A stretch of DNA of 64,000 nt from contig CBDHCN010000002.1 of the NCBI GenBank assembly GCA_965261185.1, positions 2,346,506 to 2,410,505 of the forward strand. Direction: 5' to 3'. The translations under genes and the position numbers were made by a program. The notes below the pieces were generated by a model. It searched no databases and was not told the DNA's origin. It worked only from the letters and a program-made list of their open reading frames with translations. The stretch comes from Candidatus Aldehydirespiratoraceae bacterium (lineage in GTDB: Bacteria > Actinomycetota > Acidimicrobiia > Acidimicrobiales > Aldehydirespiratoraceae). Below, in pieces: positions 306 through 26,830 of this stretch (the first letter of the stretch is position 1; each line of letters begins with the position of its first letter).

Positions 306-336
306 TTCCGCGAAATTACAAGCTTGTTGGTTGACA

Positions 337-352: not shown

Positions 353-363
353 GTTCAATGGTA

Positions 364-379
364 TCGAACGGATGTTCGA
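364..379. promoter_or_regulatory. SOS (LexA) box TCGAAC-GGAT-GTTCGA (perfect palindrome arms)
   Basis: Exact match to the actinobacterial/mycobacterial LexA operator consensus, located between lexA and the divergently transcribed LysM gene. Confidence 0.8.
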
Positions 380-393
380 CAGACATATGTTCG

Positions 394-409
394 CCAAACA
401 TTCGTTCGA
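394..409. promoter_or_regulatory. Weaker SOS-like box CCAAAC-ATTC-GTTCGA
   Basis: The right half-site is perfect and the left half-site is degenerate. Confidence 0.35.
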
Positions 410-460
410 TGTCAAGCATCTTTTCGAGATTCTCACCGAAACCACTTATACGCCGGTGAG

Positions 461-498
461 TGTCACACCCCAGGAGCAATGTCACACCCCAGGAGCAG
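461..498. repeat. 19-bp tandem duplication TGTCACACCCCAGGAGCA(A/G) x2 just upstream of the LysM gene start
   Basis: Read directly (461-479 and 480-498). Each unit carries AGGAG. Confidence 0.9.
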
Positions 499-507
499 AG
501 TGGAGTC

Positions 508-984: not shown

Positions 985-1009
985 GGCGGCGGGGATGATG
1001 ATTGGCCAG

Positions 1010-1756: not shown

Positions 1757-2178
1757 TGCCGCCGACCTTACCGTTGCGAGTCCCGTTTTTGCAGGGTCCC
1801 GCCTACGACAACCACAGACGCCTTGCGTTGTCCACCGCAGGAGGCGAACTTGTGGATATAACCCGTAGAAATCCACAACTAAATCAGATTGTCATCCACT
1901 TCTCATCCACAAGCAAGTGGCCGTAGAGTTGTCTCCGCTGTGTGGTTCGGATCGCCAGGATGGTGGTGCGAAACGTCTCAGACGAGAGTCGAATCAGTTC
2001 CTTGGGGGTACCAAGTAGGGAATGTGGGATCCGCCGCAAACTCGTCTTCCCCCTAACCCGGGAAGATCCGACCACACGGCAAACCTAAGTACGTAATCCT
2101 CATCTTGAAAAATTTTTTACTCGCAAAAAATGATCGAGCTACTCTGTTTATGACGGCGCTCGAAAGGAGCCCCGCCAT

Positions 2179-5037
2179 ATGACGCTTGTATCTGAGCGAG
2201 CCAACCTCGGCATCCGTCGCCGCTTCACGGTCCAAGGCGCCGATCCGTTCACGGACATGGAATGGGAACATCGCGAAGCGCGGCTGATCGACCATCGTGA
2301 TGGTTCTGTGACCTTTGAGCAGCTCGCAGTGGAAGTACCCAGTTCCTGGAGCCAGAACGCAACCAACATCCTGGCCCAGAAGTATTTCCGCGGGACGCTG
2401 GGCATGCCAGAGCGCGAGTCGTCGCTGCGCCAGGTCGTTTCTCGGGTGGTCAACACGATTACAGCCTGGGGCGAGCGTGATGGTTACTTCGTTGATGCCG
2501 AGGAGGCAGACAGCTTCCGAGCCGAACTCGCCCACCTGTTGGTTAACCAGAAGGCGGCGTTCAACTCGCCGGTCTGGTTCAACATCGGTGTAGAGGGCGT
2601 TCCTCAACAGGCGTCGGCTTGCTTCATTTTGTCGGTCGACGACAACATGGAGTCGATCCTCAACTGGTATGCCGAGGAGGGCCGGATCTTCAAGGGAGGA
2701 AGCGGAGCCGGAGCGAACCTCTCACGCATCCGCGCTTCAACGGAAGGCCTTGCTGGTGGTGGCACTGCTAGTGGCCCGGTGAGCTTTATGCGCGGCGCCG
2801 ATGCCTCCGCGGGCACGATCAAATCTGGAGGCAAGACCCGCCGTGCCGCCAAGATGGTGATTCTTGATGTCGATCACCCCGATGTCGAAGAGTTCATCTG
2901 GTGCAAGGCGCGTGAAGAACGAAAGGCACATGCGCTGGAGGCAGCTGGTTTCGACATGAGCCTGGACGGAATGGATATTCACTCGGTCCAGTACCAGAAC
3001 GCCAACAACTCCGTGCGTGTAACCAATGAGTTCATGCAAGCCGTCCTCGACGACTCCGACTGGGCTTTCACTGCTCGCGGCGATGGTTCGGTGACTCGCA
3101 CGGTGAAGGCCCGCAGCTTGTTGCGTCAAGTTGCTGAAGCGTCCTGGGAGTGTGCGGATCCCGGGATCCAATTCGACAGCACCATCAACCATTGGCATAC
3201 AGCGGCTAACACTGGTCGTATCAACGCCAGCAATCCCTGCTCGGAGTACCTGCACTTAGACGACTCGGCCTGCAATTTGGCATCGCTCAACCTGCTTGCC
3301 TTCCACAGCGGTGACGGCACCGACGGTTTTGATATCGAAGGGCTCGCTCATGCGGTGCGGATTGTTTTCACCGCCCAAGAGATCTTGGTTGGCAACGCCG
3401 ATTACCCCACCGACAAGATTGCCCAAAATGCCCGAGATTTCCGTCAACTAGGCCTCGGCTACGCCAATCTTGGTGCGTTGTTGATGACTCTGGGGCTGCC
3501 CTACGACTCGGACGCAGGGCGTGCGGTAGCCGCTTCGATAACCGCGCTGATGACCGGAGAGGCTTATTGCCAGTCGACGAAACTGGCGGCACGCATGGGT
3601 TCTTTCAGCGGATTCAACGAAAATCGTGAACACATGTTGCGAGTTCTCGACCAGCACCGCGCAGCGGTAGCCGACATCGACGAAAACCTTGCGCCGACCC
3701 CCATTCTTGAGGCCGCGCAACAGGCCTGGGATCAAACCTGTGAGTTCGCTGCGAGCCGTGGCGTCCGCAATGCGCAGGCCACCGTCTTGGCGCCCACCGG
3801 AACCATCGGCCTGCTTATGGACTGCGATACAACGGGCGTGGAACCCGACCTTGGGCTGGTGAAGTTTAAGCGTCTGGTTGGCGGCGGGACGATGAGCTTC
3901 GTGAACCAATCGGTGCCTCACGCTTTGCGCAACCTCGGTTACAGCCCCGATGCGGTTGAAGCCATCGTCGCCTACATCAACACCCATCACGGCGCGGTCG
4001 GAGCCCCCGGACTTGATCCCAGTGATCTTGCGGTATTCGCCTGCTCATTGGGCAGCGACCCGATCCACTACCTCGGTCATCTAAAGATGATGGGTGCGGT
4101 GCAGCCGTTCATTTCTGGAGCGATCTCCAAGACGGTCAACCTGCCAGAAGAGGCCACGATCACCGATATCGAATTGCTGCTTATTGAGTCCTGGCAGATG
4201 GGGCTCAAAGCCGTTGCGCTCTACCGCGACAACTGCAAGGTCGCACAACCGCTCTCCACTGGAGTCGCCACACCCAGCGGCGCTGAGAACGGCTCAACTA
4301 AAAGCGCGGCGGACGGTTCGGGAACCCTCACTCTTGACGGTTGGAACAACGCCACTAAAGAAGTTGGCTCGACCAGCCCCGGCACTACGAAGCGACCCGA
4401 GAGCACCGTGGAAACGCCCGCAAATCAGCCGGTGCGGGAGCGTTTGCCCCGGACCCGCACCAGCGAAACGTTCGAGTTTCGAGTGGCAGATTGCAAGGGC
4501 TTCGTCACGGTCGGCCTGTACGCAGACGGACGACCAGGCGAAATCTTCGTGCGGGTCTCGAAGCAAGGTTCCACCTTGGCAGGGATTATGGACGCGTTCG
4601 CCATTTCGCTCAGCCACGGTCTCCAATACGGAGTGCCGCTGAGCGCTTTCGTGCAGGCTTTCGTGGGTATGCGGTTCGAACCCGCGGGGATGACCGACGA
4701 TCCAGAGATTCGCATCGCCAACAGTCTGATGGACTATCTGTTCCGCAGGCTCGCAGTCATGTATTTGAGCGATGATGAACGCTCCCGTCTTGGAATATTC
4801 ACCACCGACGAACGAGTCCAACCGACTCTGCCCGGGGTTGAAGAGCAGGTCACCAAGACTGTGCAGGGATCCGATATTCCGCCTCACCGAGCAACCTCAG
4901 CTTCGGCGGCTCAACTCGCGTTCGAGGTTGACGGCGGTTCAGGTGCGCCATTCTGCATGTCGTGTGGGGTTCGGATGCGAAGAACTGGCGCCTGCTACGT
5001 CTGCGGTGACTGCGGCACCACCAGCGGTTGTAGTTAG
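2179..5037 (+). CDS. nrdJ: Vitamin B12-dependent (class II) ribonucleotide reductase
   Basis: 952-aa ORF. The N-terminus RRFTVQGADPFTDMEWEHREARL...WSQNATNILAQKYFRG, the catalytic core and the C-terminal Cys-rich tail (CMSCGVRMRRTGACYVCGDCG) are typical of actinobacterial NrdJ. AGGAG lies upstream of the ATG. Confidence 0.95.
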   Translation: MTLVSERANLGIRRRFTVQGADPFTDMEWEHREARLIDHRDGSVTFEQLAVEVPSSWSQNATNILAQKYFRGTLGMPERESSLRQVVSRVVNTITAWGERDGYFVDAEEADSFRAELAHLLVNQKAAFNSPVWFNIGVEGVPQQASACFILSVDDNMESILNWYAEEGRIFKGGSGAGANLSRIRASTEGLAGGGTASGPVSFMRGADASAGTIKSGGKTRRAAKMVILDVDHPDVEEFIWCKAREERKAHALEAAGFDMSLDGMDIHSVQYQNANNSVRVTNEFMQAVLDDSDWAFTARGDGSVTRTVKARSLLRQVAEASWECADPGIQFDSTINHWHTAANTGRINASNPCSEYLHLDDSACNLASLNLLAFHSGDGTDGFDIEGLAHAVRIVFTAQEILVGNADYPTDKIAQNARDFRQLGLGYANLGALLMTLGLPYDSDAGRAVAASITALMTGEAYCQSTKLAARMGSFSGFNENREHMLRVLDQHRAAVADIDENLAPTPILEAAQQAWDQTCEFAASRGVRNAQATVLAPTGTIGLLMDCDTTGVEPDLGLVKFKRLVGGGTMSFVNQSVPHALRNLGYSPDAVEAIVAYINTHHGAVGAPGLDPSDLAVFACSLGSDPIHYLGHLKMMGAVQPFISGAISKTVNLPEEATITDIELLLIESWQMGLKAVALYRDNCKVAQPLSTGVATPSGAENGSTKSAADGSGTLTLDGWNNATKEVGSTSPGTTKRPESTVETPANQPVRERLPRTRTSETFEFRVADCKGFVTVGLYADGRPGEIFVRVSKQGSTLAGIMDAFAISLSHGLQYGVPLSAFVQAFVGMRFEPAGMTDDPEIRIANSLMDYLFRRLAVMYLSDDERSRLGIFTTDERVQPTLPGVEEQVTKTVQGSDIPPHRATSASAAQLAFEVDGGSGAPFCMSCGVRMRRTGACYVCGDCGTTSGCS

Positions 5038-7529: not shown

Positions 7530-8435
7530 TCAGCTTGCTGCTCGTTGATCTACATAGGCCGGCACACAGTTGAGCGGAGGTCGTTCGTCGACTTGCGCTT
7601 CGACCGGCTCAAGGTCTGGTCGAAGCAAGTGATGAGTCCAGTTCGATCGCCACTCGATGCCGGCGCGGTGAAGCGCTGCGTGAAGGATCTCCATGGCTTG
7701 CACAGACAGTTCGTCAAGCAAGCGATTTCGGTGTACCCGCACCCCGAGGTCGACCTGGGCGAGCCGGGCAAGACCCACCAGATCGGCGATGTCTATGAGC
7801 AGCCCGGTTTCGACGCCGTAGCCGGTGTTGAACGGCACCTGTTCGAGAATCGTGCGCCGTGCAGCGTATTCACCGCCGAGCGGTTGGCGCACAGAGTTGA
7901 GATGAGGGAAAAGAGTGCCTAGTAAAGGGCGGGCCATGAGTTCTGTGGTGCGGCCTCCGCCTGTGCCACCAATCTCGGGTCGTTCGAAGTAGCCCTTCAC
8001 CATCGCCACTTCGGGGTCTGCTAGTAGAGGTCCGAGAAGACCGGTGACGCAACTGGGAGTGAACGAGGTGAGATCCGCGTCGATCCACACGATCAGATCT
8101 CCGTAGCAAGCTGCCACGCTCTTCCATAAGACGTTGCCTTTGCCGCGGCTAGGCCCGGCTTCCGGCAGCACATCGTCGACTGCCACGACCCTGGCGCCCT
8201 GCAGGCGGGCGGTCTTGGCGGTCGCGTCGGCGCTCCGGTCGTCCATCACCACGATCTCGTCGACCAAGCGCACTTCGGTATTGGCGAGATGATTGCGGAT
8301 GGAAGCAACAATGGTGCCCACAGTGGCCTCTTCGTTGCGTGCCGGAATGCAAACCGAGATGAGCTGGTCGCCCTTTTTTGCGAGCAGTAGGTCCAGTGGA
8401 AAACTACTGGCGCAATAGCTTCTGACATCATTCAT
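7530..8435 (-). CDS. gpgS: Glucosyl-3-phosphoglycerate synthase (GT81)
   Basis: This is the C-terminal 301 codons of the 706-aa track ORF, starting at the ATG at 8435 (MNDVRSY...). It contains ISVCIPARNEEATVG, VMDDRSADAT, GKGNVLWKS and WIDADL, typical of actinobacterial GpgS. The upstream 400 codons of the track ORF are antisense to yihY. Confidence 0.85.
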   Translation of the reverse strand: MNDVRSYCASSFPLDLLLAKKGDQLISVCIPARNEEATVGTIVASIRNHLANTEVRLVDEIVVMDDRSADATAKTARLQGARVVAVDDVLPEAGPSRGKGNVLWKSVAACYGDLIVWIDADLTSFTPSCVTGLLGPLLADPEVAMVKGYFERPEIGGTGGGRTTELMARPLLGTLFPHLNSVRQPLGGEYAARRTILEQVPFNTGYGVETGLLIDIADLVGLARLAQVDLGVRVHRNRLLDELSVQAMEILHAALHRAGIEWRSNWTHHLLRPDLEPVEAQVDERPPLNCVPAYVDQRAAS

Positions 8436-8468
8436 GCGAGTTCCATCACAGCACGTAGCCTCGAAGCA

Positions 8469-9434
8469 ATGTACTTCGGGGTAAGGCAGTATGCACGGCA
8501 GGCGCTCAGCTCTTCTATTGAAGTGGCCAAGGCGCTTGCCGACCAGATTTCCCGCGATCGTGTTGGCGGACTGTCTGCTGAGATCGCTTTCTTTGCTTTG
8601 TTGAGCTTTTTCCCGACGATGATTGTGTTGACGGCGCTGCTCGGATCGGTTGACGCGATCATTGGCCAAAGCGCCGCGCAGGAAGCTGAAGACTGGCTCG
8701 TTGAGCAGATAGTCAGAATCTTTGGTGGTGACAACACACTTGAGGCGACTGTCAACGACCTCTTTGACGGTAGCAGCGCCGGCGCGCTGACTATTGGTGC
8801 GCTTCTCGCTGTCTATGCGGCGACCCGTGGCTTTATTGCGGTGGTACGCGCGCTCGACATTGCTTACGATCATCAACAAACGCGAAGTTGGTTTTCTACT
8901 CGCCTCGTTGGCTTTGGGATCACTCTGATGTCGGTCGTCGTTGCTGCGGTGGTGATGGTGGCGCTGGTGGTCGGACCGCTTTTTGGAGAGGGCGAGCGAC
9001 TCAGCGAGACTCTCGGCGTCAGCGCGCACTACGTGACTTTGTGGAACTGGCTTAGATGGCCCGTCGTGTTCTTGGTGATGATGGGGTGGGCCGCAATCGT
9101 GTATCACATCGCGCCCTACCACCGCGCCCCTTGGAAAATTGAGTTTCCTGGAGCACTGCTGGCTGCGGTTTGGTGGTCGGTCGTTTCGCTCGGGTTCAGC
9201 ACCTACCTCAGCATCGTTGCTGCGGGAGCGAATGCTGTGTTCGGGTTTCTTGGCGGTGCCTTGAGTTTGCTGTTCTGGTTGTATCTGATGGCGATGGGGC
9301 TCTTGGTGGGAGCCGAGGTCAATTCGTTGTTCGCTACTCGGCTCGGGATTCCTCTTGAACGCGGGGACGACAACAAGTCTCGATGGTGGCGCAAGGTACG
9401 CTCGACTGATGACGGAATACAAAGCGCCTCTTGA
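8469..9434 (+). CDS. YihY/BrkB family membrane protein
   Basis: 321-aa ORF with LSAEIAFFALLSFFPTMIVL and multiple TM segments, typical of YihY. Confidence 0.85.
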   Translation: MYFGVRQYARQALSSSIEVAKALADQISRDRVGGLSAEIAFFALLSFFPTMIVLTALLGSVDAIIGQSAAQEAEDWLVEQIVRIFGGDNTLEATVNDLFDGSSAGALTIGALLAVYAATRGFIAVVRALDIAYDHQQTRSWFSTRLVGFGITLMSVVVAAVVMVALVVGPLFGEGERLSETLGVSAHYVTLWNWLRWPVVFLVMMGWAAIVYHIAPYHRAPWKIEFPGALLAAVWWSVVSLGFSTYLSIVAAGANAVFGFLGGALSLLFWLYLMAMGLLVGAEVNSLFATRLGIPLERGDDNKSRWWRKVRSTDDGIQSAS

Positions 9435-11205
9435 CGAAATCCGTTTCACACTTCGCCACGTCGCCGATCTAGACGCGCTCGGGCGCCTTGAGGGCTTTGA
9501 GCACACGGACCCCGACTTGGTGGATGGCCTCCTTGATGAGGCAGCTCGTTTCTTTGAGCAAGTGGTAGCGCCCACCAACCGCGACGGTGACCTGGTTGGA
9601 TCCCAGCGCAACGACGACGGTTCGGTAACTGCTGCTCCCGGCCTGGCCAAGGCTTACCGGCAACATGTGGCTGCCGGTTGGAACGGGGTCGCCATGCCCG
9701 CAGAACATGGCGGTGGAGGGTTTCCATGGCTGCTGGGGATCGCCGTTCAAGAGATGCTCGCGTCGGCCAATATGGGTTACTCATTGTGTCCGCTGCTGTC
9801 TCAGGCAGCGATCGACGCTCTGCTTCATCATGGTTCAGAATCTCAGCGTGAGACGTACCTACCGAAGATGGTGACAGGGGAGTGGTCCGGCACCATGAAC
9901 CTCACCGAGCCACAGGCGGGCTCCGACGTGGGGGCGTTGACTTCCAAGGCGCAACCCAATAGCGACGGCACTTGGCGGATTACAGGGCAAAAAATCTTCA
10001 TTACCTGGGGCGAACATGACATGGCGGACAACATCATCCATATGGTGCTCGCTCGTACCCCGGGTGCGCCTGTGGGCACCAGCGGTATCAGCTTGTTCAT
10101 CGTCCCGAAATTATTAGTCAACGACGACGGTTCGCTCGGCGAGCGCAACGATGTCTACTGCGTGTCTATTGAGCACAAGTTGGGAATTCACGCGAGTCCG
10201 ACGTGTGTGATGGCCTATGGCGACAATGGCGGAGCGGTCGGCTACATGGTAGGCGGGGAGAATGCTGGCATGGCGGCCATGTTCACGATGATGAACAACG
10301 CCCGATTGTCGGTCGGTCTGGAAGGTGTGGCCCTTGCCGAACGCGCTTACCAGCAGGCTTTGGATCATGCGTTGCTGCGCCGACAGGGTCGAGCTCAAGG
10401 TGCTGGCCCGGGAGAGTCTTCACCAATTATTGAGCACCCGGACGTTCAGCGAATGCTGCTTGACATGCGCTCGGCGATCGCGGCGATGCGAGGCCTCTGC
10501 TATCGCAACGCCGAGGCCCTCGATTGGGCCGCAAGAGGCCCCGATGAAGCGACCTGTACGAAGAACTCGGAGCGCGCCGCGTTGCTGACTCCGTTGTCTA
10601 AGGCGTGGTGTACCGATCTCGGTTGCGAACTCACCAGCATCGGGATTCAGGTGCACGGCGGCATGGGCTACATCGAAGAAACCGGTGCGGCGCAGCATTT
10701 TCGTGATGCCCGTATCGCCCCGATCTATGAGGGCACGAATGGTATTCAGGCGCTTGATCTGGTTGCTCGCAAGCTGCCGATGCGTGGCGGCCGAGTCGTG
10801 ACGGATCTGCTGAAGTCGATCGCAGACACAGTTGAATCGGCGGCCGAATTCTCAAGTTTGAAGATGGTGGCTGAGCATCTCGAAGCAGCGCATTCCGCGA
10901 CCTTTGCCGCGACCGAGTGGCTGCTTGAGCGGCGGAGTTCTGTTCCGGCCGATGCCCTGGCTGGGGCAACTGCCTACCTGGAGATGCTCGCGGTCACGAC
11001 TGCAGGTCAGGCTCTCGCCGACGGTGCAGTCGCGGCCGCTCGGAGTTCCGATTCCGATGCTGGAGCCGATGTGGCAGCGGACCGCGGCGTTCTGGCCCGG
11101 GTTTTCTCGGCGAACAGATTGGCAAGGGTTCCTGGAATGCTGGCTGCGGTCACGGTTGGGGCCGCTGACCTGCAGTCGGCTAGAACACGGTTGCTGACGC
11201 AATAG
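9409..11205 (+). CDS. Long acyl-CoA dehydrogenase (FadE5-like, with C-terminal extension)
   Basis: Part of ORF 9355..11205. The start is set at the ATG at 9409 ([15 protein letters not shown]...), the typical N-terminus of about 600-aa ACADs. ACAD middle and C-terminal motifs are present ([20 protein letters not shown]). Confidence 0.9.
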
Positions 11206-11226
11206 CGGCAATAGGCTACGCCCAAC

Positions 11227-12078
11227 ATGTTTGTGGCTTCGATCCCCAGTCCGTCCCAGAGCTATCTGGAAATTGGTCCGTTAACGATTCGCGCCTACGG
11301 GCTGATGATTGCTCTTGGCGTGATCGCCGCGGTTTGGCTTTCGCAGAAGCGCTGGGAAGCCCGCGGCGGCGATCGTGACGACATCACTTCGCTGGCTATG
11401 TGGTGCGTGCCGGCAGGACTCATCGGTTCGCGGGTCTACCACGTGTTCACCGACTGGCGGTTTGATGAGGGTTGGGCGGAGCCGTTCAAGTTGTGGGAGG
11501 GAGGTCTTGGCATCCCGGGTGGTATGGCCGCTGGCGTGCTCGTCGGGGTCTGGATCATCCATCGCAGATCCTGGGACAGGCCCAATATGGTCGACGCCAT
11601 CGTCCCGGGCCTGCCGTTGGCCCAAGCGATAGGCCGATGGGGCAACTGGTTCAATCAGGAGCTCTTCGGCGGCCCCTCCGATCTGCCATGGGCGCTGGAG
11701 ATAGACGAAAAATATGCCGCCGCCCGTGGCTACACCGATGTGGAGACATTTCATCCAACATTTCTGTATGAGTCATTGTGGAACTTCGGCTTGGTTCTGT
11801 TCTTGATCCGGGTTGACAAGACCAAGAAACTCCGCGCTGGCGGGTTGTTGGCTGTATACGCACTCGGTTACCTGACTGTTCGTCTCTGGCTTGAGACGGT
11901 GCGGGTCGATCACGCCACCGAGATTGCCGGGGTTCGCGTCAATATCTGGATGAGCATCATCGGCATGGTCATTGCCGCGGGGTGGTTGCTGCTGCGTGGC
12001 CGCCGCCCCGAAACCGACGCCGAGGCGAGCGATGAAGGCGAATCTTATGACGCTGACGAGCAACAGGTTGAGCGCTGA
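11227..12078 (+). CDS. lgt: Prolipoprotein diacylglyceryl transferase
   Basis: 283-aa ORF with IRAYGLMIALG, GSRVYHV and GRWGNWFNQELFG, the signature motifs of Lgt. Confidence 0.9.
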   Translation: MFVASIPSPSQSYLEIGPLTIRAYGLMIALGVIAAVWLSQKRWEARGGDRDDITSLAMWCVPAGLIGSRVYHVFTDWRFDEGWAEPFKLWEGGLGIPGGMAAGVLVGVWIIHRRSWDRPNMVDAIVPGLPLAQAIGRWGNWFNQELFGGPSDLPWALEIDEKYAAARGYTDVETFHPTFLYESLWNFGLVLFLIRVDKTKKLRAGGLLAVYALGYLTVRLWLETVRVDHATEIAGVRVNIWMSIIGMVIAAGWLLLRGRRPETDAEASDEGESYDADEQQVER

Positions 12079-12088
12079 GAGATCGAAT

Positions 12089-12391
12089 GTGAGCGATCGC
12101 TCGGGTTGGACCAGTTTCGAGGCTGATGTGGCAGCAGTGCTGGATCGACTCTCCGAAGGTTACGTGGTTACCTACGGCGAGGTTGCCGCCGAAGCGGGTT
12201 ATCCGGGTGCCGCCCGCGCGGTTGGGTCGCTGCTGAGTCGCCTGCCCGACGCGGGACTCTGTTGGTGGCGGGTTGTGACAACTACCGGTCGCCTAGCGCC
12301 GAACTGCGAGCAGGAACAAGCGAAGCGCTTGCGGGAAGAGGGTGTCGAAGTTGTCGACGGGCGGGTCCGAGGCTTATCCCGCTACGCTTGA
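12089..12391 (+). CDS. Alkyltransferase-like (ATL) protein: MGMT DNA-binding domain lacking the acceptor cysteine
   Basis: Part of ORF 11972..12391; the GTG at 12089 avoids overlap with lgt. YGEVAAEAGYPGAARAVGSLLSRLPDAGLCWWRVV aligns with the E. coli YbaZ/Atl ...PWHRVV motif, with Trp in place of the catalytic Cys of the PCHRV motif. Confidence 0.6.
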   Translation: MSDRSGWTSFEADVAAVLDRLSEGYVVTYGEVAAEAGYPGAARAVGSLLSRLPDAGLCWWRVVTTTGRLAPNCEQEQAKRLREEGVEVVDGRVRGLSRYA

Positions 12392-12398
12392 GCGCGCA

Positions 12399-13571
12399 AT
12401 GCTGAAAGCCGGTACTTCTTCGTTCACGGAACTGGGCTTGCGCCACGAATTTGTTGAAGTCCTTGCCGCGCGAGGAATTCACTCCCCGTTCCCGGTGCAA
12501 GAACTGACGATCCCCGACGCGCTTGAAGGACGCGATGTCTGCGGGAAGGCCAAGACAGGCTCAGGTAAGACTCTCGCCTTCGGTCTCCCGGTGCTCCAAC
12601 GCATGAGCCGAGCGCGCCCCAAGTTCCCCACCGGACTGGTGCTGGTACCGACTCGGGAACTCGCCAGTCAGGTCAGAGAGGAACTCGCAGCCCCGGCCCA
12701 AGCCGTGAACCGAAAGGTGCTGGCTGTCTATGGGGGTGCGCCGATCGAAAAGCAGATTGAGAAGCTGCGATCGGGGGTTGACTTGGTGGTTGCCACACCT
12801 GGGCGCATGATTGATCTGATTGAACGCCAGGCAATTTCTGTGAGAGATGTGGCCCATGTCGTGGTTGATGAGGCGGATCGGATGGCCGACATGGGGTTCC
12901 TTCCTCAGGTCGAGTGGGTCCTGCGCAACGTGCGTTCCGACCGTCAGACGCTGCTGTTCTCGGCCACGCTCGACGGGGTGGTCAACTCACTGATCCGTCG
13001 TTATCAACACGATCCGGTGATGCATGAGGTGGTCGAACAAGAGTTCACCGCGAAAGAGATGACCCATCGCTTCATTGCAGTCCACAAGATGGACAAAGTG
13101 AAAGTTGCCGCCGCTATTGCTCGTTCAACGGACCGCACGCTCATGTTCACCAGCACCAAGGTGATGGCAGATCGTCTCGCCCGTGATCTCGCACAGATTG
13201 GTGTCAAGGCGGCAGCGATTCACGGAGACCTTCGTCAGAGCAACAGGGAGAAGTCGCTGCGTGATTTCACCAACGGGAAACTCCAGGCGCTGGTAGCCAC
13301 CGATGTGGCGGCCCGGGGTATCCATGTTGACGATATTGACATTGTTGTTCACTACGACCCTCCCGGGGACCACAAGACTTACCTGCATCGGGCTGGCCGC
13401 ACCGCCCGGGCCGGTGAGACAGGCCTCGTCGTCACCTTGTCTGTTTGGGACGAAGAATTGGAGATCAAGCGGCTCCAGAAACGAATTGATGTCATCGCGC
13501 CCCTGACCGCGATGTTCTCCAACGACGGGCGGCTTGCTGATCTAGCCGGCTGGGATCCCAACGCCGCCTAA
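12399..13571 (+). CDS. DEAD-box ATP-dependent RNA helicase
   Basis: Part of ORF 12342..13571, starting at the ATG at 12399. It has a Q-motif region, AKTGSGKT, DEAD (VVDEADRM), SAT and HRAGRTARAG. Confidence 0.9.
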   Translation: MLKAGTSSFTELGLRHEFVEVLAARGIHSPFPVQELTIPDALEGRDVCGKAKTGSGKTLAFGLPVLQRMSRARPKFPTGLVLVPTRELASQVREELAAPAQAVNRKVLAVYGGAPIEKQIEKLRSGVDLVVATPGRMIDLIERQAISVRDVAHVVVDEADRMADMGFLPQVEWVLRNVRSDRQTLLFSATLDGVVNSLIRRYQHDPVMHEVVEQEFTAKEMTHRFIAVHKMDKVKVAAAIARSTDRTLMFTSTKVMADRLARDLAQIGVKAAAIHGDLRQSNREKSLRDFTNGKLQALVATDVAARGIHVDDIDIVVHYDPPGDHKTYLHRAGRTARAGETGLVVTLSVWDEELEIKRLQKRIDVIAPLTAMFSNDGRLADLAGWDPNAA

Positions 13572-19322: not shown

Positions 19323-20837
19323 ATGCTCCAATCATCACCCGAAGACCTCCTACGAGTAATTCACGAGCAGAACCCTTGGCGGAGCCAAGGAAAGGTACCA
19401 GATCCGCTGGCCCCACCAGTGGAGCGTCCCTTGGCGCAGCTGTTGTGGCGACGGCTCCTTGAAGACGATCCACGCCGGTATCAACTCATCCTCGGTCCGC
19501 GTCGAGTGGGAAAAACAACGGTGCTGTATCAGACCGTGGCACATCTCTTGGACAATGGAGTGGACTCTTCGCGTATCTGGTGGTTCCGTCTGGACCATCC
19601 GATCCTGTTGCGGGAGGAACTCGGCGATTTGCTTCTCTTCGCGGTCGAATCCAGTGGCGCCACCCCTGATCGGCCGGTCTATTTGATGCTCGACGAGTTG
19701 GTCTACGCAGACTCCTGGGACACCTGGTTGAAATCCTTCTACGACGACCAGTGGCCCGTGAAGATTGCGGCGACGTCGAGTGCGGCGGCAGCACTCCACA
19801 AGGGCAGGGTGGAGAGCGGAGTCGGACGATGGGAAGAACAACACCTGACTCCGTATTCGTTGACCGAGTATCTGGATCTGGCAGCTGTGCAGCGCCAGAT
19901 CGTCGATGCCGGCGACTACATCGGTTGGGAAAGCTTGGCCCGAGAGACGCTTGCCTCCTGTATTCGGGCGATGCCTGCTGGACTATCGAGGTTCTCGGTG
20001 TTCTCGGACGACCGCCGTCGGCTCATGTTGATCGGTGGGTTCCCGGAGTTGCTCGGCTTCGCCACTGAAGGATCAGACGAAGGCCATGCGTACTCCGAAG
20101 GGGACCTATCGCTCATTTCCCAGCAAGTGCTCCGCCCGGACGCGGTGGAGCGGGCTGTATACAAAGACATCCCGCAGTCTTTCGGGGTGGGCAACCCGAT
20201 GATGTTGGAGCGGCTGCTGTATGTCCTAGCCGATCAGGTTACGGGACTTCTGTCGCCGACGAACATCTGTACCAACCTGGGCATGACGGTGCCGACCTTT
20301 GATCGTTATCTGTCGTATTTGGAACAGGCGTTCATGGTGTTCACGTTGCCCAACTACTCGGCTAGCGAGGCGAAGGTGCAGCGTCGGGGTAGGAAGCTGT
20401 ACTTCATCGACGGCGCTGTGCGTAACGCCGCCTTGCAGCGTGGCTTAGCTCTCATGGACGACTCTGCGGAGATGGGAGTGCTCTTGGAGAATCTGGTAGC
20501 GGCATCCCTGCGCACGCTGGCGGTACACAACGGTGTTCGCTTGTATCACTGGCGAGACGGTGATCGAGAAGTTGACTTCATCTATGACGACCCGCAGAAT
20601 CCACTTGCGTTTGAGATCGCCTCGTCTCCCCGTCACCATCGCGGAGGGTTGAGTAGTTTCGCCGCTCGGAACAAGCGCTTCCGCGGCAACTGTTATCTGG
20701 TAGCCCCGAACGCCCAAGTGAAACACCCGAGACCCAGCGGACCGGGCGTCGGCACGCTTCCGTTGGATGCCTTGTTGGTAGCTATTGGTGCGCAGGCGCA
20801 TCAGGCTATGACGCGGCGGTTGGGGGTGAGGGACTGA
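19323..20837 (+). CDS. AAA-type ATPase with a DUF4143-like C-terminal domain
   Basis: 504-aa ORF with a Walker A (LGPRRVGKTT) and Walker B (YLMLDEL). The layout is typical of the AAA_14 + DUF4143 'ATP-binding protein' family. Confidence 0.8.
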   Translation: MLQSSPEDLLRVIHEQNPWRSQGKVPDPLAPPVERPLAQLLWRRLLEDDPRRYQLILGPRRVGKTTVLYQTVAHLLDNGVDSSRIWWFRLDHPILLREELGDLLLFAVESSGATPDRPVYLMLDELVYADSWDTWLKSFYDDQWPVKIAATSSAAAALHKGRVESGVGRWEEQHLTPYSLTEYLDLAAVQRQIVDAGDYIGWESLARETLASCIRAMPAGLSRFSVFSDDRRRLMLIGGFPELLGFATEGSDEGHAYSEGDLSLISQQVLRPDAVERAVYKDIPQSFGVGNPMMLERLLYVLADQVTGLLSPTNICTNLGMTVPTFDRYLSYLEQAFMVFTLPNYSASEAKVQRRGRKLYFIDGAVRNAALQRGLALMDDSAEMGVLLENLVAASLRTLAVHNGVRLYHWRDGDREVDFIYDDPQNPLAFEIASSPRHHRGGLSSFAARNKRFRGNCYLVAPNAQVKHPRPSGPGVGTLPLDALLVAIGAQAHQAMTRRLGVRD

Positions 20838-21976: not shown

Positions 21977-23113
21977 ATGGACTTTCGATTGACTGACCAA
22001 CACGAGGCACTCAGAACCGAGGTCCGCGCCTGTATCGATGACCATATCGACGACGAAGTGATTGCAAGGGCTCATCGCACGGGTGCCAACCATTGCGCCG
22101 AGTTAGCCAAGGCGCTCGGCGATGCCGGCCTTCTTGCTCAGGCAATGCCGGGGGAGGGGCAGGATCCAATGGCGATGTGGATGCTGTCGAGCGAAGCCGA
22201 GAAGGCGGGAGCACCTTTCGATTCGGTAGGCATGGCGCTTGTGATTGCGGGCGTTCTCAACGCGGCAGGAACTGCGGCTCAGTACCAGAGGGTCACCGCG
22301 GCGCTGTTGGCGGGGGAGGAGTTCGTCTGCTTCGGTTTGACTGAACCTGACGGCGGTAGCGACTTGCCCGCAATCAAGACCCGAGCGGTTCGTGACGGCA
22401 ACGAGTGGGTGATCAACGGTTCCAAGATGTGGACCACGCTGGCGCAGGTATCCGACTGGGTGTTCCTGTTGACTCGCACCGATCCCGACGCGGGCCGGTA
22501 CGGCGGGTTCACCGTCTTCATCATCCCGATGGACACTCCCGGTATCACCGTCGATCCGATTCACACGATGAGCACTGAGCGTTCCAACGTCACGTTCTAC
22601 GACGATGTCCGCGTGGGCGACGAATGGGTGGTCGGCGAGGTGAACGAGGGTTGGCGGGTTGTGTCGATCATGTTCGGCTTCGAGCGCGGCTTAGCCAATA
22701 CCGGGGCTCTGACACCCCTGCTGCGCCGCTTCCACAAATGGGCAGCGGGCAGAGGCGTGATCGCCGATCTGGTGCACCGTGAACGAATGGCCCAAGTCGC
22801 GATCGACGCACAGGTTGCGGAGTTACTGACCCAACGCACCGGGTGGACCGCGGCGATCGGCGAACCGAGTGGCACGGAGGGCTCGATTGCCAAAGTCTTC
22901 GCCACTGAGGCGTATCAACGGCACGCACGTTGGGCCCAAGCCGCGGCCGGACCCGAAGGACTTGTTGGCCTGAACGAGCCGGGCGCGGCAGCCGACGGAT
23001 GGATCGATCACGATGTCCGCCACTCCGTCCCGCAAACATTCCAAGGCGGCACCACCGAGATCAACCGCAACAACATCGCCGAACGCCACCTCAACCTCCC
23101 CCGCGCCCGCTAG
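21977..23113 (+). CDS. Acyl-CoA dehydrogenase family protein
   Basis: 378-aa ORF containing GLTEPDGGSDL, WVINGSKMWTT and FQGGTTEINRNNIA. Confidence 0.9.
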   Translation: MDFRLTDQHEALRTEVRACIDDHIDDEVIARAHRTGANHCAELAKALGDAGLLAQAMPGEGQDPMAMWMLSSEAEKAGAPFDSVGMALVIAGVLNAAGTAAQYQRVTAALLAGEEFVCFGLTEPDGGSDLPAIKTRAVRDGNEWVINGSKMWTTLAQVSDWVFLLTRTDPDAGRYGGFTVFIIPMDTPGITVDPIHTMSTERSNVTFYDDVRVGDEWVVGEVNEGWRVVSIMFGFERGLANTGALTPLLRRFHKWAAGRGVIADLVHRERMAQVAIDAQVAELLTQRTGWTAAIGEPSGTEGSIAKVFATEAYQRHARWAQAAAGPEGLVGLNEPGAAADGWIDHDVRHSVPQTFQGGTTEINRNNIAERHLNLPRAR

Positions 23114-23220
23114 AGCGCCCCGCCATAGTTGCAGTACATCAATATTTGTGACATAATGATTACAGTCTACAAATAGCGGTAGGTGCTATTCAACGCACCA
23201 CTCAAAGGGGAAAGGCAAAC

Positions 23221-23436
23221 ATGAACACCACACACACAACCACCATCCGCCAAGACGCTCAGCAAGCTGCCGAACTCGGCGCTGTAGCAAGAGTTGATGG
23301 CGTATCCACCTCGGAGGCGATCCGCTCCGCTATCGCCGAGCACATCGAAAAGAGGCGAAGCGATCCTGCTTTCCAGGCCCGACTCCAGCGTATCCTTGAG
23401 CAGGAGCGTGTCGTGCTTGAAAAGCTCGCCGAGTGA
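23221..23436 (+). CDS. Ribbon-helix-helix antitoxin (partner of Doc)
   Basis: 71-aa ORF with the RHH signature ...GVSTSEAIRSAIAEHIEKRR.... Its stop lies 1 nt before the doc ATG, and AAAGGGGAAAGG lies upstream of its own ATG. Confidence 0.75.
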   Translation: MNTTHTTTIRQDAQQAAELGAVARVDGVSTSEAIRSAIAEHIEKRRSDPAFQARLQRILEQERVVLEKLAE

Positions 23437-23437
23437 C

Positions 23438-23866
23438 ATGAGCGTTCAGTGCCTCGACCTCCCGGACTTCCTGCTGATCGCAGAGCGGGTAACCGGAATG
23501 GAGGTCGAGGTACTGGCGCGCCAACCGGGGTTGCACATGGCTAAGCATGCTCTCTCGGCGCCGAACGGTGGTTTCGGGGATATCGATTACTACCCCTCGT
23601 TCGCGCAAAAGGCTGCTGCTATGGCCTACCAACTCATTAAGGGGCATCCCCTTGAGGACGGAAACAAGCGCGTGGGATACTTCTGTCTTCTTGAGTTCGT
23701 CTATCGGAATGACTACGAATGGGTGCCGCCTCAGAACGACGGTCCCGAAAGAACGGAGACCGTTGCAACAATCGAGCGCGTTGCAGCAGGATCGGTCAGT
23801 CAGCTTGACTTCGCGGATTGGATTCAAAACAGGCTAGTAGAACCATCGGATAGTCATGAAGGGTGA
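23438..23866 (+). CDS. doc: Doc (death-on-curing) / Fic-family toxin
   Basis: Part of ORF 23294..23866, from the ATG at 23438. It carries the Fic/Doc motif HPLEDGNKR, and its 142-aa size is typical of Doc. Confidence 0.85.
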   Translation: MSVQCLDLPDFLLIAERVTGMEVEVLARQPGLHMAKHALSAPNGGFGDIDYYPSFAQKAAAMAYQLIKGHPLEDGNKRVGYFCLLEFVYRNDYEWVPPQNDGPERTETVATIERVAAGSVSQLDFADWIQNRLVEPSDSHEG

Positions 23867-24653
23867 ATTGACACTCCCCTTTCCGAGCGGTGACCCCTCT
23901 CTCCAAGGAGAACTCGCTGACTTGCCTTTGGTTTATATCGCTTCCCCCCTCACGCGGGTTAACACTTCAAGCGCACTACGTCGGGGTGTTACGTTTGAGG
24001 TTGACAAGATCGTCTCTACTATTCAAGATCCTCGCTTTGACGGTGCGGAACCTGAGTTTCGTACGCATGCACCAGCGGTGCAGAGTGCTCCATGGTCGAA
24101 CGATGCCACTGACTGGGACATCTACCGACAAAACACCCTCCTAGTCTTGGCTGAAGCCGATGCCATCATTATCTTGGCTCATCAGGGGGGCAGTAGCGGA
24201 ACGGGGCAGGAACTCGAACTCGCTACACGGCGGCAGATACCTATTCTCCATCTATCACCGACTGATGAAGCAGTAAGTCGGCAAGTGACAGGAAATCCGT
24301 TGGTATCGGCGAGCACGTATCAGCTGCCAGATGAATTAGCAGAGGAAGTTCGCAGCTTTATTCGCGATAATCGAACTGCGATAGAGGCAGGTCCGGCGCG
24401 CCGACGCGACACATCGATGATATACGGTCCCCTACAATCTGATTTGATGAACAAATGGCGAGATCTTGAGGTTAGGAGACAAGGCGATGTGGCTAAACGA
24501 GCTGGTACGACTCCTGAACTTGTTGATCACTTTCTGAGTCATCCGCTGATGCTTGCTACATTAGCTCACCATCAGATTCTGCAAATCGGGAATGGGCTGG
24601 GCGTGAACGTCACCAGTTACTTCACTAGGTACACGGGTGCTCTAGTGTTCTAG
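23856..24653 (+). CDS. Nucleoside 2-deoxyribosyltransferase/DNPH1-like domain fused to an XRE-type HTH; truncated by an 8-bp repeat-borne stop
   Basis: 265-aa ORF overlapping doc by 11 nt. The N-half reads PLVYIASPL...EADAIIILAHQGGSSGTGQELELATRRQIPILHL, the Rossmannoid NDT/Rcl pattern with a conserved Glu. The C-half reads VAKRAGTTPELVDHFLSHP...LQIGNGLGVNVTSYF, an HTH_XRE pattern. The fold assignment is by eye only. Confidence 0.6.
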   Translation: MKGELTLPFPSGDPSLQGELADLPLVYIASPLTRVNTSSALRRGVTFEVDKIVSTIQDPRFDGAEPEFRTHAPAVQSAPWSNDATDWDIYRQNTLLVLAEADAIIILAHQGGSSGTGQELELATRRQIPILHLSPTDEAVSRQVTGNPLVSASTYQLPDELAEEVRSFIRDNRTAIEAGPARRRDTSMIYGPLQSDLMNKWRDLEVRRQGDVAKRAGTTPELVDHFLSHPLMLATLAHHQILQIGNGLGVNVTSYFTRYTGALVF

Positions 24654-24666
24654 TGTTCTAGTGTTC
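24642..24666. repeat. 8-bp tandem triplication CTAGTGTT x3
   Basis: Read directly: 24642-24649, 24650-24657 and 24658-24665. The second unit supplies the TAG stop at 24651-24653. Confidence 0.95.
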
Positions 24667-24837
24667 AAAGACATTAGAGCGCTTGTGTCAGCTCAGGAGG
24701 AATACGGCTGGAATGATCGCCTTACCGAACAGTTGCTTCAGCACGCTGAACAGGTCCAAATGTCGGAAGGCGTGCGACGTCTGAAGCTCAGTAGTCCCGC
24801 CGATTGGCTGAGACTACGTGAGGATATCGAACTGTGA
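24661..24837 (+). pseudogene. Detached 3' portion of the preceding gene (58 codons from the GTG at 24661)
   Basis: Open frame VFKDIRALVSAQEEYGWNDRLTEQLLQHAEQVQMSEGVRRLKLSSPADWLRLREDIEL ending in a TGA that overlaps the immA GTG (GTGA). It becomes in-frame with 23856..24653 if two of the three 8-bp units are removed. Confidence 0.55.
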
Positions 24838-25547
24838 ATTTGGATCCTGATCGTTTGGCGCTAAGAGTCACCCGTAGTTTCGAATTGGGCCCACCTCCGA
24901 TCGACGTTGAGACTTTAGCTGCTTCACTTGGCGTAATCGAGATCTCAGAAGAGTCCCTAATTGAGGATGGACGCTTGGAACTATCGGACGGCTCAGCCCG
25001 AATTCTGGTGCGAAGCGCGATCTCGACTGAAAGAAAGCGCTTCACTATCGCTCACGAAATATGCCACCTTCTGTTGACAGGATCTCAAACAGATCTAGTA
25101 GCAGTTCGTCATATCATTGGACATGATGACGAGGAGCGCTTCTGCGAGGACTTTGCGGCAGCGCTCCTCTTGCCCGCCGGTTGGGTAAGAGACGTGGCGT
25201 CCAATCGTCCTCACACACTTCACACACTGCGTGTTGTCGCAGGACGCTCGAATACATCACTAGCAGCGTCGTGTGTTCGGCTTGGCAAGATTGCCGGTTG
25301 GCGCAGCACCCTATTGCATTGGACGCGCTATCCGAGTGGTTGGCGGTTTCGTTGGGCAGCAGGTCTCCCTGCGGGATTCAAAGGGACGATTCGTTCTGCA
25401 GATCGGACAGCGGCCGTTCTTGACACAGTCAACGAAAGCGGCGATAAATCGACACTGGTCCCGATTCGGGTTGGTGGAGCAGAGCGTGAAGTTCTAGCTC
25501 AGGTCTCGGTTCGTCGCGGTTCGGCGCTCGTGTTAGCCGAACTCTGA
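24834..25547 (+). CDS. ImmA/IrrE family Zn-metallopeptidase (COG2856/DUF955)
   Basis: 237-aa ORF with the HEXXH motif in FTIAHEICHLLL and the downstream EERFCEDFAAALLLPAGW motif characteristic of ImmA/IrrE. Confidence 0.85.
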   Translation: MNLDPDRLALRVTRSFELGPPPIDVETLAASLGVIEISEESLIEDGRLELSDGSARILVRSAISTERKRFTIAHEICHLLLTGSQTDLVAVRHIIGHDDEERFCEDFAAALLLPAGWVRDVASNRPHTLHTLRVVAGRSNTSLAASCVRLGKIAGWRSTLLHWTRYPSGWRFRWAAGLPAGFKGTIRSADRTAAVLDTVNESGDKSTLVPIRVGGAEREVLAQVSVRRGSALVLAEL

Positions 25548-25798
25548 GTGTTCAATCGCTAACCCTCAGGCAAACCCTGTGACTCCGCCCATAGAACGAC
25601 ACTCGAATGACTGCGCGACGATAATACCCGCCGCCTCTGGCAAACACGTGAGTACCCCAATCCTGCTGATGTCGGGTCCATTAGTCGGCGGTGTCTTGGC
25701 CGATTTTTTGGGTAGAGACCAGTGTGGGGGGATCCAGGCCAAGAAGAATCGGGACTCCGGCCATGTCCGCTTGGAAGGTGGGACACGGCATTGAGCCG

Positions 25799-26092
25799 TT
25801 ATGGATCGGGGGTGAAACCCCAGCGAGCGGCGAACTCTGTTGGGGAGAAGGCTTCAAGCTCGGAAGCGAGTTGGGCGCCGGTGTCGGATTCGTCGCCGTA
25901 GGTGTCTTTGATTGTGGTCAACACCCGCCCGGTCCCGGTTTCGATGATGTGCCATATCCGGTTTGAAGGTGATGCCGCTCCGCCCAATGTTAACAATCCC
26001 CAAACGAGAGTCGCAAAGGTCCGCAACATGCGGATCGGCAGCGGGCGCTTGCCGACCTCGATATGCCAGACGTTCGACGCAGTATCGGTCAT
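25799..26092 (-). CDS. Small hypothetical membrane protein
   Basis: Part of ORF 25799..26119. The ATG at 26092 is preceded by GGAGAGGG. One TM segment (FATLVWGLLTLGGAA). No family recognised. Confidence 0.4.
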   Translation of the reverse strand: MTDTASNVWHIEVGKRPLPIRMLRTFATLVWGLLTLGGAASPSNRIWHIIETGTGRVLTTIKDTYGDESDTGAQLASELEAFSPTEFAARWGFTPDP

Positions 26093-26167
26093 TTCCCTCT
26101 CCGGATCATGCTCGTTCATATCTCGTTCATTCTATCCGTCAGTCCAGTGGGCCTCTAGGCTGAAAGT

Positions 26168-26830
26168 GTGAGCGGATCTGAGGACCCAAAGCTTGAGCGA
26201 CTGCGCTCGCTTGTTGATCCCTCGACAACCGCGGTCGTCACGATGGAACTCCAACAGGGCGTGGTCGGTCCCGATGCGTTGCTCCCGGAGTTGGTGCAAC
26301 GGGTAGCCGAAGCCAAAACTGTTGAGGCTGCGGCGAAAGTGTGCCAAGCAGCCCGCACTGTCGGCGTCCGTGTTGTGCATTGCACCGCCGAGCATCGTGC
26401 AGACGGGGCTGGAGCCACTGAGAACGCCAAGATCATGGCGCTCATCGGCAAACTCCGCCGCGAACAGGGTGTCCTGCCTACAGAGATCGGTACCCCCGGC
26501 GCTGCTCTGGTTAGTGAACTCGGCCCTGAACCAGTCGATATCGTGATCCCCCGCATGCACGGGATGACACCGTTCATGTCCACCTCGCTGGACCAGGTGT
26601 TGCGCAATCTCGGCACCAGAACGGTTGTGGCGACAGGCGTCTCGGTGAACATTGGGATCCTGGGGCTCTGTCTGAACGCACTTGATCTCGGCTATCAGGT
26701 GGTCCTTGTGCGAGATGCGGTCGCCGGCGTGCCTGCCGAATACGCAGACGCTGTGATTGACAACACTCTTTCGCTGATCGCTACCATCACCACATCCACC
26801 GAACTCTGCTCGCTGTGGGAATCGCCCTAG
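26168..26830 (+). CDS. Isochorismatase-family cysteine hydrolase
   Basis: 220-aa ORF with the fold pattern TAVVTMELQ...VVATGVSVNIGILGLCLNALDLGYQVVLVRDA. Confidence 0.8.
   Translation: MSGSEDPKLERLRSLVDPSTTAVVTMELQQGVVGPDALLPELVQRVAEAKTVEAAAKVCQAARTVGVRVVHCTAEHRADGAGATENAKIMALIGKLRREQGVLPTEIGTPGAALVSELGPEPVDIVIPRMHGMTPFMSTSLDQVLRNLGTRTVVATGVSVNIGILGLCLNALDLGYQVVLVRDAVAGVPAEYADAVIDNTLSLIATITTSTELCSLWESP

Follow-up and report, generated by a model that had tools for sequence, protein, structure and literature searches.

A 64,000-nucleotide stretch of DNA from a Candidatus Aldehydirespiratoraceae bacterium (contig CBDHCN010000002.1, positions 2,346,506 to 2,410,505), here called the window, carries at 23221–25547 a cassette of four translationally coupled genes on the + strand. 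They encode a ribbon-helix-helix (RHH) protein, a Doc toxin, a three-part fusion of a DNPH1/Rcl-like domain with a helix-turn-helix (HTH) and a C-terminal domain, and an ImmA-type protease. A preliminary description, made from the sequence alone, had placed four coupled open reading frames on one strand here, and every coordinate that it gave was verified on the sequence. The features of the locus are as follows.

23129–23157, + strand: putative promoter, with a weak −35 (TTGCAG), a 17-nt spacer and a TGn-extended −10 (CATAAT); sequence reading and cassette alignment
23167–23199, + strand: pair of short inverted repeats that overlap each other, lying 3′ of the −10 and 5′ of the ribosome-binding site; direct reading and alignment
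23221–23436, + strand: RHH (CopG/RelB/Phd-type) antitoxin gene, 71 aa; Pfam RHH_1, DUF6290 and NCBIfam RelB-like
23438–23866, + strand: Doc (Fic-fold kinase) toxin gene, 142 aa, with HPLEDGNKR intact; Pfam Fic and TIGR01550
23856–24653, + strand: 5′ part of the fusion gene, aa 1–265 and a premature TAG; open reading frame starting 11 nt inside doc
24642–24665, + strand: tandem array of three copies of the 8-bp unit CTAGTGTT; TRF
24661–24837, + strand: 3′ remnant of the fusion gene, encoding the C-terminal three-helix domain (aa 266–321 of the intact protein); frame restored by removal of 16 bp
24834–25547, + strand: ImmA/IrrE/CapP-type M78 zinc metallopeptidase gene, 237 aa; Pfam M78, PADLOC and PDB profiles

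The cassette sits in an island of low GC content, 0.50–0.58 over 23.0–26.2 kb against 0.60–0.67 outside it, and is flanked by genes for two acyl-CoA dehydrogenases, an isochorismatase-family protein and an enoyl-CoA hydratase. This agrees with the AT-richer patch reported at 23.1–26.1 kb as an interruption in a run of fatty-acid genes. The patch is one horizontally acquired four-gene operon that travels as a unit.

The first two genes were recognised as an antitoxin and a Doc/Fic toxin in the preliminary description, and the profile matches agree. The RHH protein is just over the Pfam RHH_1 cutoff (21.5 bits against 20.5), and its TGA stop ends at 23436, which leaves a gap of 1 nt before the Doc ATG at 23438. 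The Doc protein matches Pfam Fic at 3e-9 and TIGR01550 DOC_P1 at 8e-10 (38.9 bits, cutoff 38.65). Its HPLEDGNKR fits the Doc-type motif H-x-[FL]-x-[DE]-[AG]-N-K-R, and the RHH gene is the small coupled gene, immediately 5′, that a cognate antitoxin would be.

The fourth gene starts within a GTGA overlap with the end of the fusion gene, and its product is the ImmA/IrrE zinc peptidase that had been proposed: it matches Pfam Peptidase_M78 at 2.8e-12 with the zinc ligands intact. Matches to IrrE (3dte, 8e-8; 5e-13 when a profile is used) and, with the profile, to the CapP structure 7t5t (5.6e-8) point the same way. Among the PADLOC models, capP matches at 1.1e-22 over residues 6–156 and RmrA at 2e-9; 13 RmrA models match, over the peptidase domain only. 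The protein carries HEICH (74–78), EERFCEDFAAALLLP, E101 and C104, together with an extra C-terminal domain beyond the peptidase. H74, E75, H78 and E101, which make up the HExxH motif and the downstream Glu ligand of the M78 family, are invariant in 11 ImmA partners. C104 is invariant as well and lies within an ERFC zinc-ligand motif; IrrE has the same motif but no cysteine switch. The single-sequence AlphaFold model of ImmA was too poor to use (pLDDT 39).

In the window the fusion gene is a broken allele. Its start, described earlier as lying 11 nt inside doc, was verified at 23856, and the 16 extra bp of the CTAGTGTT array shift the frame and make a TAG at 24651–24653 after codon 265. When two CTAGTGTT units (16 bp) are deleted, a 321-aa open reading frame results that ends at 24837. 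This product, which the preliminary description had reconstructed, is a real one: it is 100% identical over its full length to a public intact protein (P0001), whose gene occupies the corresponding locus in the chromosome of a sister strain (L001) that has one CTAGTGTT copy. In a more distant relative, a Ca. Aldehydirespiratoraceae metagenome-assembled genome (MAG) at ~88% nucleotide identity, the cassette at this site is likewise intact. Over 13 kb the window shares 98.9% identity with L001, and the 16-bp expansion is the sole indel between them. All 121 substitutions fall outside 22625–26224, a 3.6-kb tract that covers the whole low-GC island and is identical to L001 save for the 16-bp insertion; the flanks differ by ~1.3%. 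At the flank rate ~46 differences would be expected in this tract and 0 were found (Poisson P ~6e-21), which suggests that the island was exchanged by recombination, or swept, between the two strains very recently. The frameshift would be younger than that event.

The AlphaFold model of the intact fusion, built with 20 homologues (pLDDT 77), has three parts. The first is a Rossmannoid α/β domain at approximately aa 24–156 (nt 23925–24323). Its best Foldseek matches in the PDB are human and rat DNPH1 (Rcl), the CMP/hm-CMP N-glycosidases MilB and BcmB, and nucleoside 2-deoxyribosyltransferases (NDTs), with E values down to 3e-4 and TM scores of 0.63–0.83 normalised by target, those for DNPH1, MilB and BcmB being 0.7–0.83; a search of BFVD matches phage NDT-like proteins. 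By sequence, the window protein gives sub-threshold Pfam matches only (DUF4406 and cpYpsA), and the narrow family profile (A1), like a profile of the C-half (A5), finds nothing significant among PDB sequences. A broad profile (A2) of 124 family members matches rat Rcl at 1.3e-7, MilB at 1.5e-7 and BlsM at 2e-3, and 16 members individually match Pfam Nuc_deoxyrib_tr. The fold and the broad profile together bear out the NDT/Rcl-like identity that had been given to the N-half. The fusion protein is nameless in PADLOC, NCBIfam and PHROG-style naming; one source labels a homologue "nucleoside 2-deoxyribosyltransferase".

The HMMER alignment to Rcl places E119 (in GTGQE) at the Rcl nucleophile, Y27 at the active-site Tyr and N93 at the catalytic Asp. 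S113 and S141 (in SRQxxG) fall on two Rcl Ser positions, the 5′-phosphate-binding serines of Rcl/DNPH1. Across the 124 members E119 is kept in 112, S141 in 117, S113 in 104 and Y27 in 98. At position 93, 87/124 members carry Asn and 18/124 carry Asp; the short forms have Asn in 78 of 92 cases, and the Asp forms are concentrated in the most distant members, including all three of the kinase fusions described below. Rcl chain 4fyh itself has Asn at the equivalent position and chain 2khz has Asp. The features of the NDT superfamily, that is the fold, the Glu nucleophile in G-x-G-x-E, the Tyr and the two Ser, are thus present, with the exception of the catalytic Asp (human D80, rat D69), where N93 stands. 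The DNPH1 triad is Y24-D80-E104, and its D80N variant has been crystallised as a Michaelis complex with 5hm-dUMP (PMC12751057). As judged from these residues, the pocket is conserved for a ligand of the nucleoside 5′-monophosphate type, while the chemistry in the window clade is probably slowed or altered. Because the catalytic Asp is Asn in this clade, a role as sensor or slow-turnover enzyme is at least as likely as one as depletion effector.

The second part of the model is a helical region (158–256) with a five-helix bundle at 190–250. Here, through homologues and the predicted fold, we assign a divergent XRE-type HTH at approximately aa 190–250 (nt 24423–24605). The XRE-type HTH that had been proposed for the C-half is not seen in the window protein itself, since neither this protein nor the C-half of 24 clade members matches a Pfam HTH even at E ≤ 1, but it is seen in full-length homologues. 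P0164, which aligns with the family profile over query residues 20–315, matches HTH_31 at 4e-9 and HTH_3 at 2e-6, both above gathering scores and at the equivalent of ~190–250, and matches Nuc_deoxyrib_tr at 2e-5 in its N-half. P0161, P0168 and P0169 behave in the same way (HTH_3 8e-10 in P0168). The third part is a three-helix C-terminal domain at 265–320 in which W280, R303 and W312 are invariant or nearly so; the search of PDB sequences with A5 detected no relatives of it. The truncation in the window allele falls after F265, with K266 next in the intact allele, which is the start of the first helix of this domain (265–278).

We asked how widely this gene order occurs. An exhaustive HMM search with the fusion protein gave 370 representative clusters, 129 of them at E ≤ 1e-10, and the members are mostly full-length at 310–335 aa; the close clade has 21 members, all of ~321 aa. 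A metagenome scan with the narrow alignment A1 added 3 further loci only. The unit thus recurs across many uncultured bacteria, and the hosts that are named are Acidimicrobiia MAGs and one Geminicoccaceae MAG. Neighbourhoods were read for 16 lineages of the 370 clusters, at 24–100% identity to the window protein, the distant members being reached by 12 exact-protein look-ups. Several of the loci come from low-coverage metagenome contigs, and the frameshifts or fusions in L011, L019 and P0017 may be assembly errors.

This neighbourhood survey, a check that the preliminary description had suggested, shows strong co-occurrence. An M78 peptidase gene lies directly 3′ of the fusion gene in 14 of the 16 lineages, usually with a 4-nt overlap, and the divergence of ImmA tracks that of the fusion protein. 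A Doc-fold partner is found 5′ or fused in 13 of the 15 readable lineages, and an RHH gene 5′ of Doc in at least 11, including a fusion whose Doc domain is dead (L016). One of the lineages that lack ImmA, L019, has RHH and Doc intact, two frameshifts in the fusion gene (884–1877) and no protease, and L011 has a frameshift in ImmA (650–1398). These lesions may represent recurrent decay of the two downstream genes with the addictive pair retained, or assembly error. In the most divergent short-form lineage (L021–L023) the partner may have been swapped: the 3′ gene in L022 (1141–1443) is unlike ImmA over its first 101 aa, and L021 has an upstream Doc-like gene with a degenerate motif (3198–3656).

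The Doc position is filled in several ways. Separate Doc genes keep HP[LI]xDGNKR in the window, L003, L005, L006, L009, L010, L020 and L024, though not in L021. In ~26 representative clusters (440–500 aa) a Doc-fold domain is fused N-terminally to NDT::HTH. P0017 is such a Doc::NDT::HTH fusion with a live Doc motif; it lies on a 2x-coverage contig, where a 1-nt error would create the fusion. In P0160, P0163 and P0165 a Hanks-type Ser/Thr kinase is fused in place of Doc (L014, 1609–3369), with an M78 peptidase still 3′; these three proteins have the full Y-D-E triad, a Pfam-detectable HTH and no RHH. Upstream of the fusion gene in L012 there is only an 84-aa open reading frame with a sub-threshold NucS_C-like match.

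The surroundings of the cassette vary and include integrases, a transposase, CBASS with DUF1156, methyltransferases and Hen1/Pnkp. The gene order recurs in unrelated neighbourhoods over the whole range of 24–100% identity, which makes the four genes a real co-inherited module, and the co-divergence of the genes and the recurrent fusions to Doc-fold and kinase domains argue for the same conclusion. Chance adjacency, which the preliminary description had named as an outcome that would undo its reading, is excluded by the recurring order, the coupled junctions and these fusions. The cassette in L006 stands directly 3′ of a type II CBASS operon (SAVED effector, SMODS cyclase, E1/E2 fusion and a 444-aa protein of no assigned family; 1–4810). 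On its 3′ side (9545–12316) a 388-aa gene of no assigned family overlaps the ImmA stop and a DUF1156 protein is encoded; this neighbourhood looks like a defence island. In L002 a Hen1-like methyltransferase and a Pnkp-like RNA repair pair lie immediately 3′ of the cassette (8938–12881), with an rve transposase 5′. A second RHH homologue (E 3.5e-29) is encoded on the − strand of L017 at 8223–8438, ~3 kb 3′ of the cassette and at the edge of the locus, and may be part of a second cassette copy. No relatives of the cassette were found in IMG/VR, in the INPHARED phages or in the PLSDB plasmids.

The region upstream of the RHH gene is also shared among cassettes. A promoter TTGCAG-17-CATAAT had been proposed at 23129–23157. 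The sequence is present, but a generic consensus promoter scan did not call it, and its poor −35 has 3/6 matches. The −10 fares better: when the upstream regions of ten cassettes are aligned, similarity starts at the promoter position, and cassettes whose neighbourhoods are unrelated share an extended −10 (TGn with CATAAT, TACAAT, TATAAT or TATTAT) placed identically. The inverted repeats that follow in the window are CTAC-N8-GTAG (23167–23182) and GGTGC-N8-GCACC (23182–23199), and a good ribosome-binding site lies downstream of them. Their arms are just 4–5 bp, below the reach of the repeat finder, and they were identified by eye and with a script. L006 has CCTAC-N8-GTAGG and GGTGC-N10-GCACC, both exact, and the block is kept with 1–2 arm mismatches in L005, L009 and L019. 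On this pattern the repeats are candidate operators for the RHH protein, the HTH protein or both.

Other features of the window were noted alongside. A 106-aa open reading frame on the − strand (25799–26119), within the low-GC island and convergent with the cassette, has no match in Pfam, PADLOC or NCBIfam. It was considered as a fifth cassette gene and rejected, as it is confined to this locus on the chromosome (L001, L004/L007) and does not accompany cassettes elsewhere. An AAA_14/DUF4143 ATPase gene at approximately 19323–20837 (+ strand; mapped from L001 1468–2982) lies just 5′ of the two acyl-CoA dehydrogenase genes. The GC content dips to 0.54–0.58 at 19.0–19.6 kb around it, and it may be another acquired gene. 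Two tRNA genes, at 53940–54012 (−) and 59130–59204 (+), are the sole matches at the Rfam gathering threshold in the 64 kb.

How might such a module work? By analogy with ImmR-ImmA, DdrO-IrrE, CapH-CapP and Rosmer, the reading that we favour, though we would give it somewhat less than an even chance, is that the cassette is a protease-gated switch of the toxin-antitoxin or abortive-infection type. The three-part fusion would serve ImmA as its substrate and the cassette as a repressor or antitoxin that responds to nucleotides. As an oligomer assembled through its C-terminal domain, the fusion would bind the inverted repeats 3′ of the promoter and, together with the RHH protein, repress the operon. 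The DNPH1-like domain would bind, or slowly turn over, a ligand of the nucleoside 5′-monophosphate type and so tune the switch. A stress or infection signal, which by analogy with CapP could be single-stranded DNA, would trigger ImmA to cut the fusion near the junction of the HTH and the C-terminal domain, abolishing oligomerisation and DNA binding. The collapse of repression would then free the Doc-family partner, the released nucleotide domain or both. ImmA, IrrE and CapP are all known to cut their XRE partners. CapP cuts CapH at F82/R83, in the first helix of the C-terminal dimerisation domain; single-stranded DNA stimulates the cleavage, and truncation there derepresses. The truncated window allele may mimic this cleaved state, by position only; in the window itself the switch is broken.

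Within this switch, the DNPH1-like domain might be a receptor rather than an enzyme. In that case, with Glu119 kept and Asn in place of the Asp, an infection-specific nucleotide would bind to it, or covalently 5-phospho(deoxy)ribosylate it, and would thereby license cleavage by ImmA and release of the Doc or kinase toxin. Hydroxymethyl-pyrimidine monophosphates are one candidate; DNPH1 and MilB prefer them as substrates, and certain phages produce them in large amounts. We consider this version unlikely. If it is true, hundreds of lineages would carry an immune sensor of modified-nucleotide metabolism that had not been described before.

Several observations weigh against a protease-gated repressor that frees Doc. 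The HTH lies below Pfam detection in the window clade, which leaves DNA binding unproven; the ImmA cleavage site is placed from position alone, by analogy, and a basic residue at 266 is not a conserved feature of the family. In L021–L023 the overlapping 3′ gene is not recognisably ImmA. The catalytic His is gone in nearly all fused Doc domains and in the separate L021 gene, and the more distant members keep the full Y-D-E triad. The last two points bear on the nature of the effector. Where the His is lost, Doc cannot be the effector and the NDT domain is the sole candidate, and the triad indicates that the ancestral domain was probably an active hydrolase. Both favour a different arrangement, in which the DNPH1/NDT-like domain would be the toxin, an N-glycosidase acting on a nucleotide (dNMP, NMP or NAD-type). 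It would be inactive while tethered, for example because tethering blocks an active dimer of the NDT type, and would be released by the ImmA cut. The cassette would then be a nucleotide-depletion abortive infection system, with the RHH protein and the Doc fold as sensor or adaptor. The near-invariance of the Glu nucleophile, both Ser and the Tyr fits such a toxin, and the NDT-like effector of retron Ec86 is a precedent. Against it stand the Asn in place of the catalytic Asp in the window clade, given that D80N DNPH1 crystallised with its substrate intact, and the perfect active-site motif of the separate Doc partners, which means that a functional toxin is already present. The genome also carries a C-terminally truncated allele, which would speak against truncation at this site setting free a lethal activity, provided that the allele is expressed and no artefact of assembly. 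We regard an NDT toxin as possible, but doubtful.

The kinase-type domains that recur in the family, as separate Doc or as the Hanks kinase fused in P0160, P0163 and P0165, would also suit a circuit in which the Doc-fold protein or the Ser/Thr kinase phosphorylates the NDT::HTH repressor. CapK phosphorylates CapS in this manner: there a kinase activated by DNA damage controls an immune repressor and has been co-opted into a toxin-antitoxin system. ImmA would provide a further input or act as a reset protease, and the targets of regulation would chiefly be the cassette's own genes or those next to it. Yet many Doc-fold partners lack the catalytic His, no conserved downstream cargo genes were seen in the neighbourhoods read, and the established target of Doc is EF-Tu, which makes a phosphorylation circuit distinctly improbable. 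Finally, the third and fourth genes could be the leftover ImmR/ImmA module of a degraded prophage or integrative and conjugative element (ICE), lying beside an ordinary Phd/Doc pair with no functional coupling. ImmR/ImmA pairs are typical of mobile elements, the patch is low in GC, and some relatives lie near integrases or a transposase. This explanation is largely refuted by synteny and fusions, since the same order and overlapping stop and start codons are kept from 24% to 100% identity in unrelated neighbourhoods and ~26 representative clusters have Doc-fold::NDT::HTH fusions. Moreover, the cassette contains no phage or ICE genes and has no matches in the phage, plasmid and IMG/VR collections, and we judge this explanation very improbable.

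A protease-gated switch of the kind set out above would belong to an emerging theme, as an ImmA/IrrE protease with an XRE repressor is coming to be seen as a general damage or infection switch, in ICE and prophage induction, in the radiation response of Deinococcus, in the control of CBASS and in Rosmer defence. In the cassette family this pair is joined by a DNPH1-like nucleotide pocket inside the protease substrate as a fixed third element, and by the Doc-fold or kinase partner as a nearly fixed fourth. Should the pocket sense or destroy a nucleotide, the status of the nucleotide pool would be linked to proteolytic derepression and toxin release, a logic that is undescribed for toxin-antitoxin or defence systems. 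With four small genes and a set of natural variants (either Asp or Asn as residue 93, Doc domains live or dead, fusions to a kinase, and the allele truncated at the putative cleavage junction), the family is directly testable in laboratory strains.

The preliminary description had found no named toxin-antitoxin or defence system to match the cassette, and this held in PADLOC, NCBIfam and Pfam. It held also in a full-text literature search, whose coverage excluded subscription journals and in which no deoxyribosyltransferase-like domain appeared with ImmA/IrrE/COG2856 or Doc in one system. Among the closest known systems is CapH/CapP, along with DdrO/IrrE and ImmR/ImmA. In these systems, too, an M78/COG2856 peptidase lies beside an XRE-type repressor with a C-terminal oligomerisation domain; the cassette protease is within the CapP family by sequence (PADLOC capP, as above), and the window frameshift lies where the first C-terminal helix begins, the place at which CapP cuts CapH. 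The cassette repressor, however, is a 321-aa fusion with a 160-aa DNPH1-like domain rather than a stand-alone HTH protein of ~100 aa, and its gene precedes that of the protease in one operon with a toxin-antitoxin pair. The cassette is also self-contained: it has no conserved cargo operon and is not placed 5′ of a separate immune operon, and only the L006 copy adjoins CBASS.

In RosmerTA (RmrT/RmrA), which defends against phages, an antitoxin with an ImmA-family protease and HTH component is paired with interchangeable, highly variable toxins, and the cassette protease matches RmrA models over its peptidase domain, as above. RmrA, though, has its HTH and peptidase in one polypeptide, whereas the 237-aa cassette protease has no HTH; no cassette protein matches a PADLOC RmrT model, and the cassette has four components, including a complete RHH-Doc pair. 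Three-component COG2856-Xre-toxin systems were predicted by Makarova, Wolf and Koonin in 2009 (PMC2701414) and follow the same logic, a single operon that joins a Zn protease and an Xre repressor to a classical toxin. Their toxins are RelE and PIN rather than Doc, they have no nucleotide-binding domain, and their COG2856 and Xre domains are usually fused together. The resemblance to Phd/Doc lies in a small DNA-binding antitoxin gene coupled to a Doc with intact HxxxDxNKR. The cassette antitoxin is of the RHH and not the Phd/YefM fold, and the pair never stands alone in the family, as NDT::HTH always follows it.

The nucleotide domain itself shares its fold, Glu nucleophile, Tyr and two phosphate-binding Ser with the nucleoside-5′-monophosphate N-glycosidases DNPH1 (Rcl), MilB, BcmB and BlsM. 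It differs from them in the Asn for the catalytic Asp in the cassette clade, in its fusion to a DNA-binding module and in its setting, a conflict-type operon instead of a metabolic or antibiotic-biosynthesis context. An NDT-like domain in a conflict system is also found in the effector of retron Ec86 (Eco1), which depletes adenine derivatives and whose dimerisation is required for defence. The likeness is one of domain type: the cassette has no reverse transcriptase or msDNA, and its other partner domains and regulators are different. Each gene is an ordinary member of its own superfamily (RHH, Doc, M78, NDT/DNPH1-like and, as judged through homologues, XRE), and none of these known systems has the arrangement of the cassette. 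The cassette is not a new principle, since the concept of an ImmA-type protease, an XRE repressor and a toxin acting together was predicted in 2009 and has been realised in RosmerTA and CapH/CapP.

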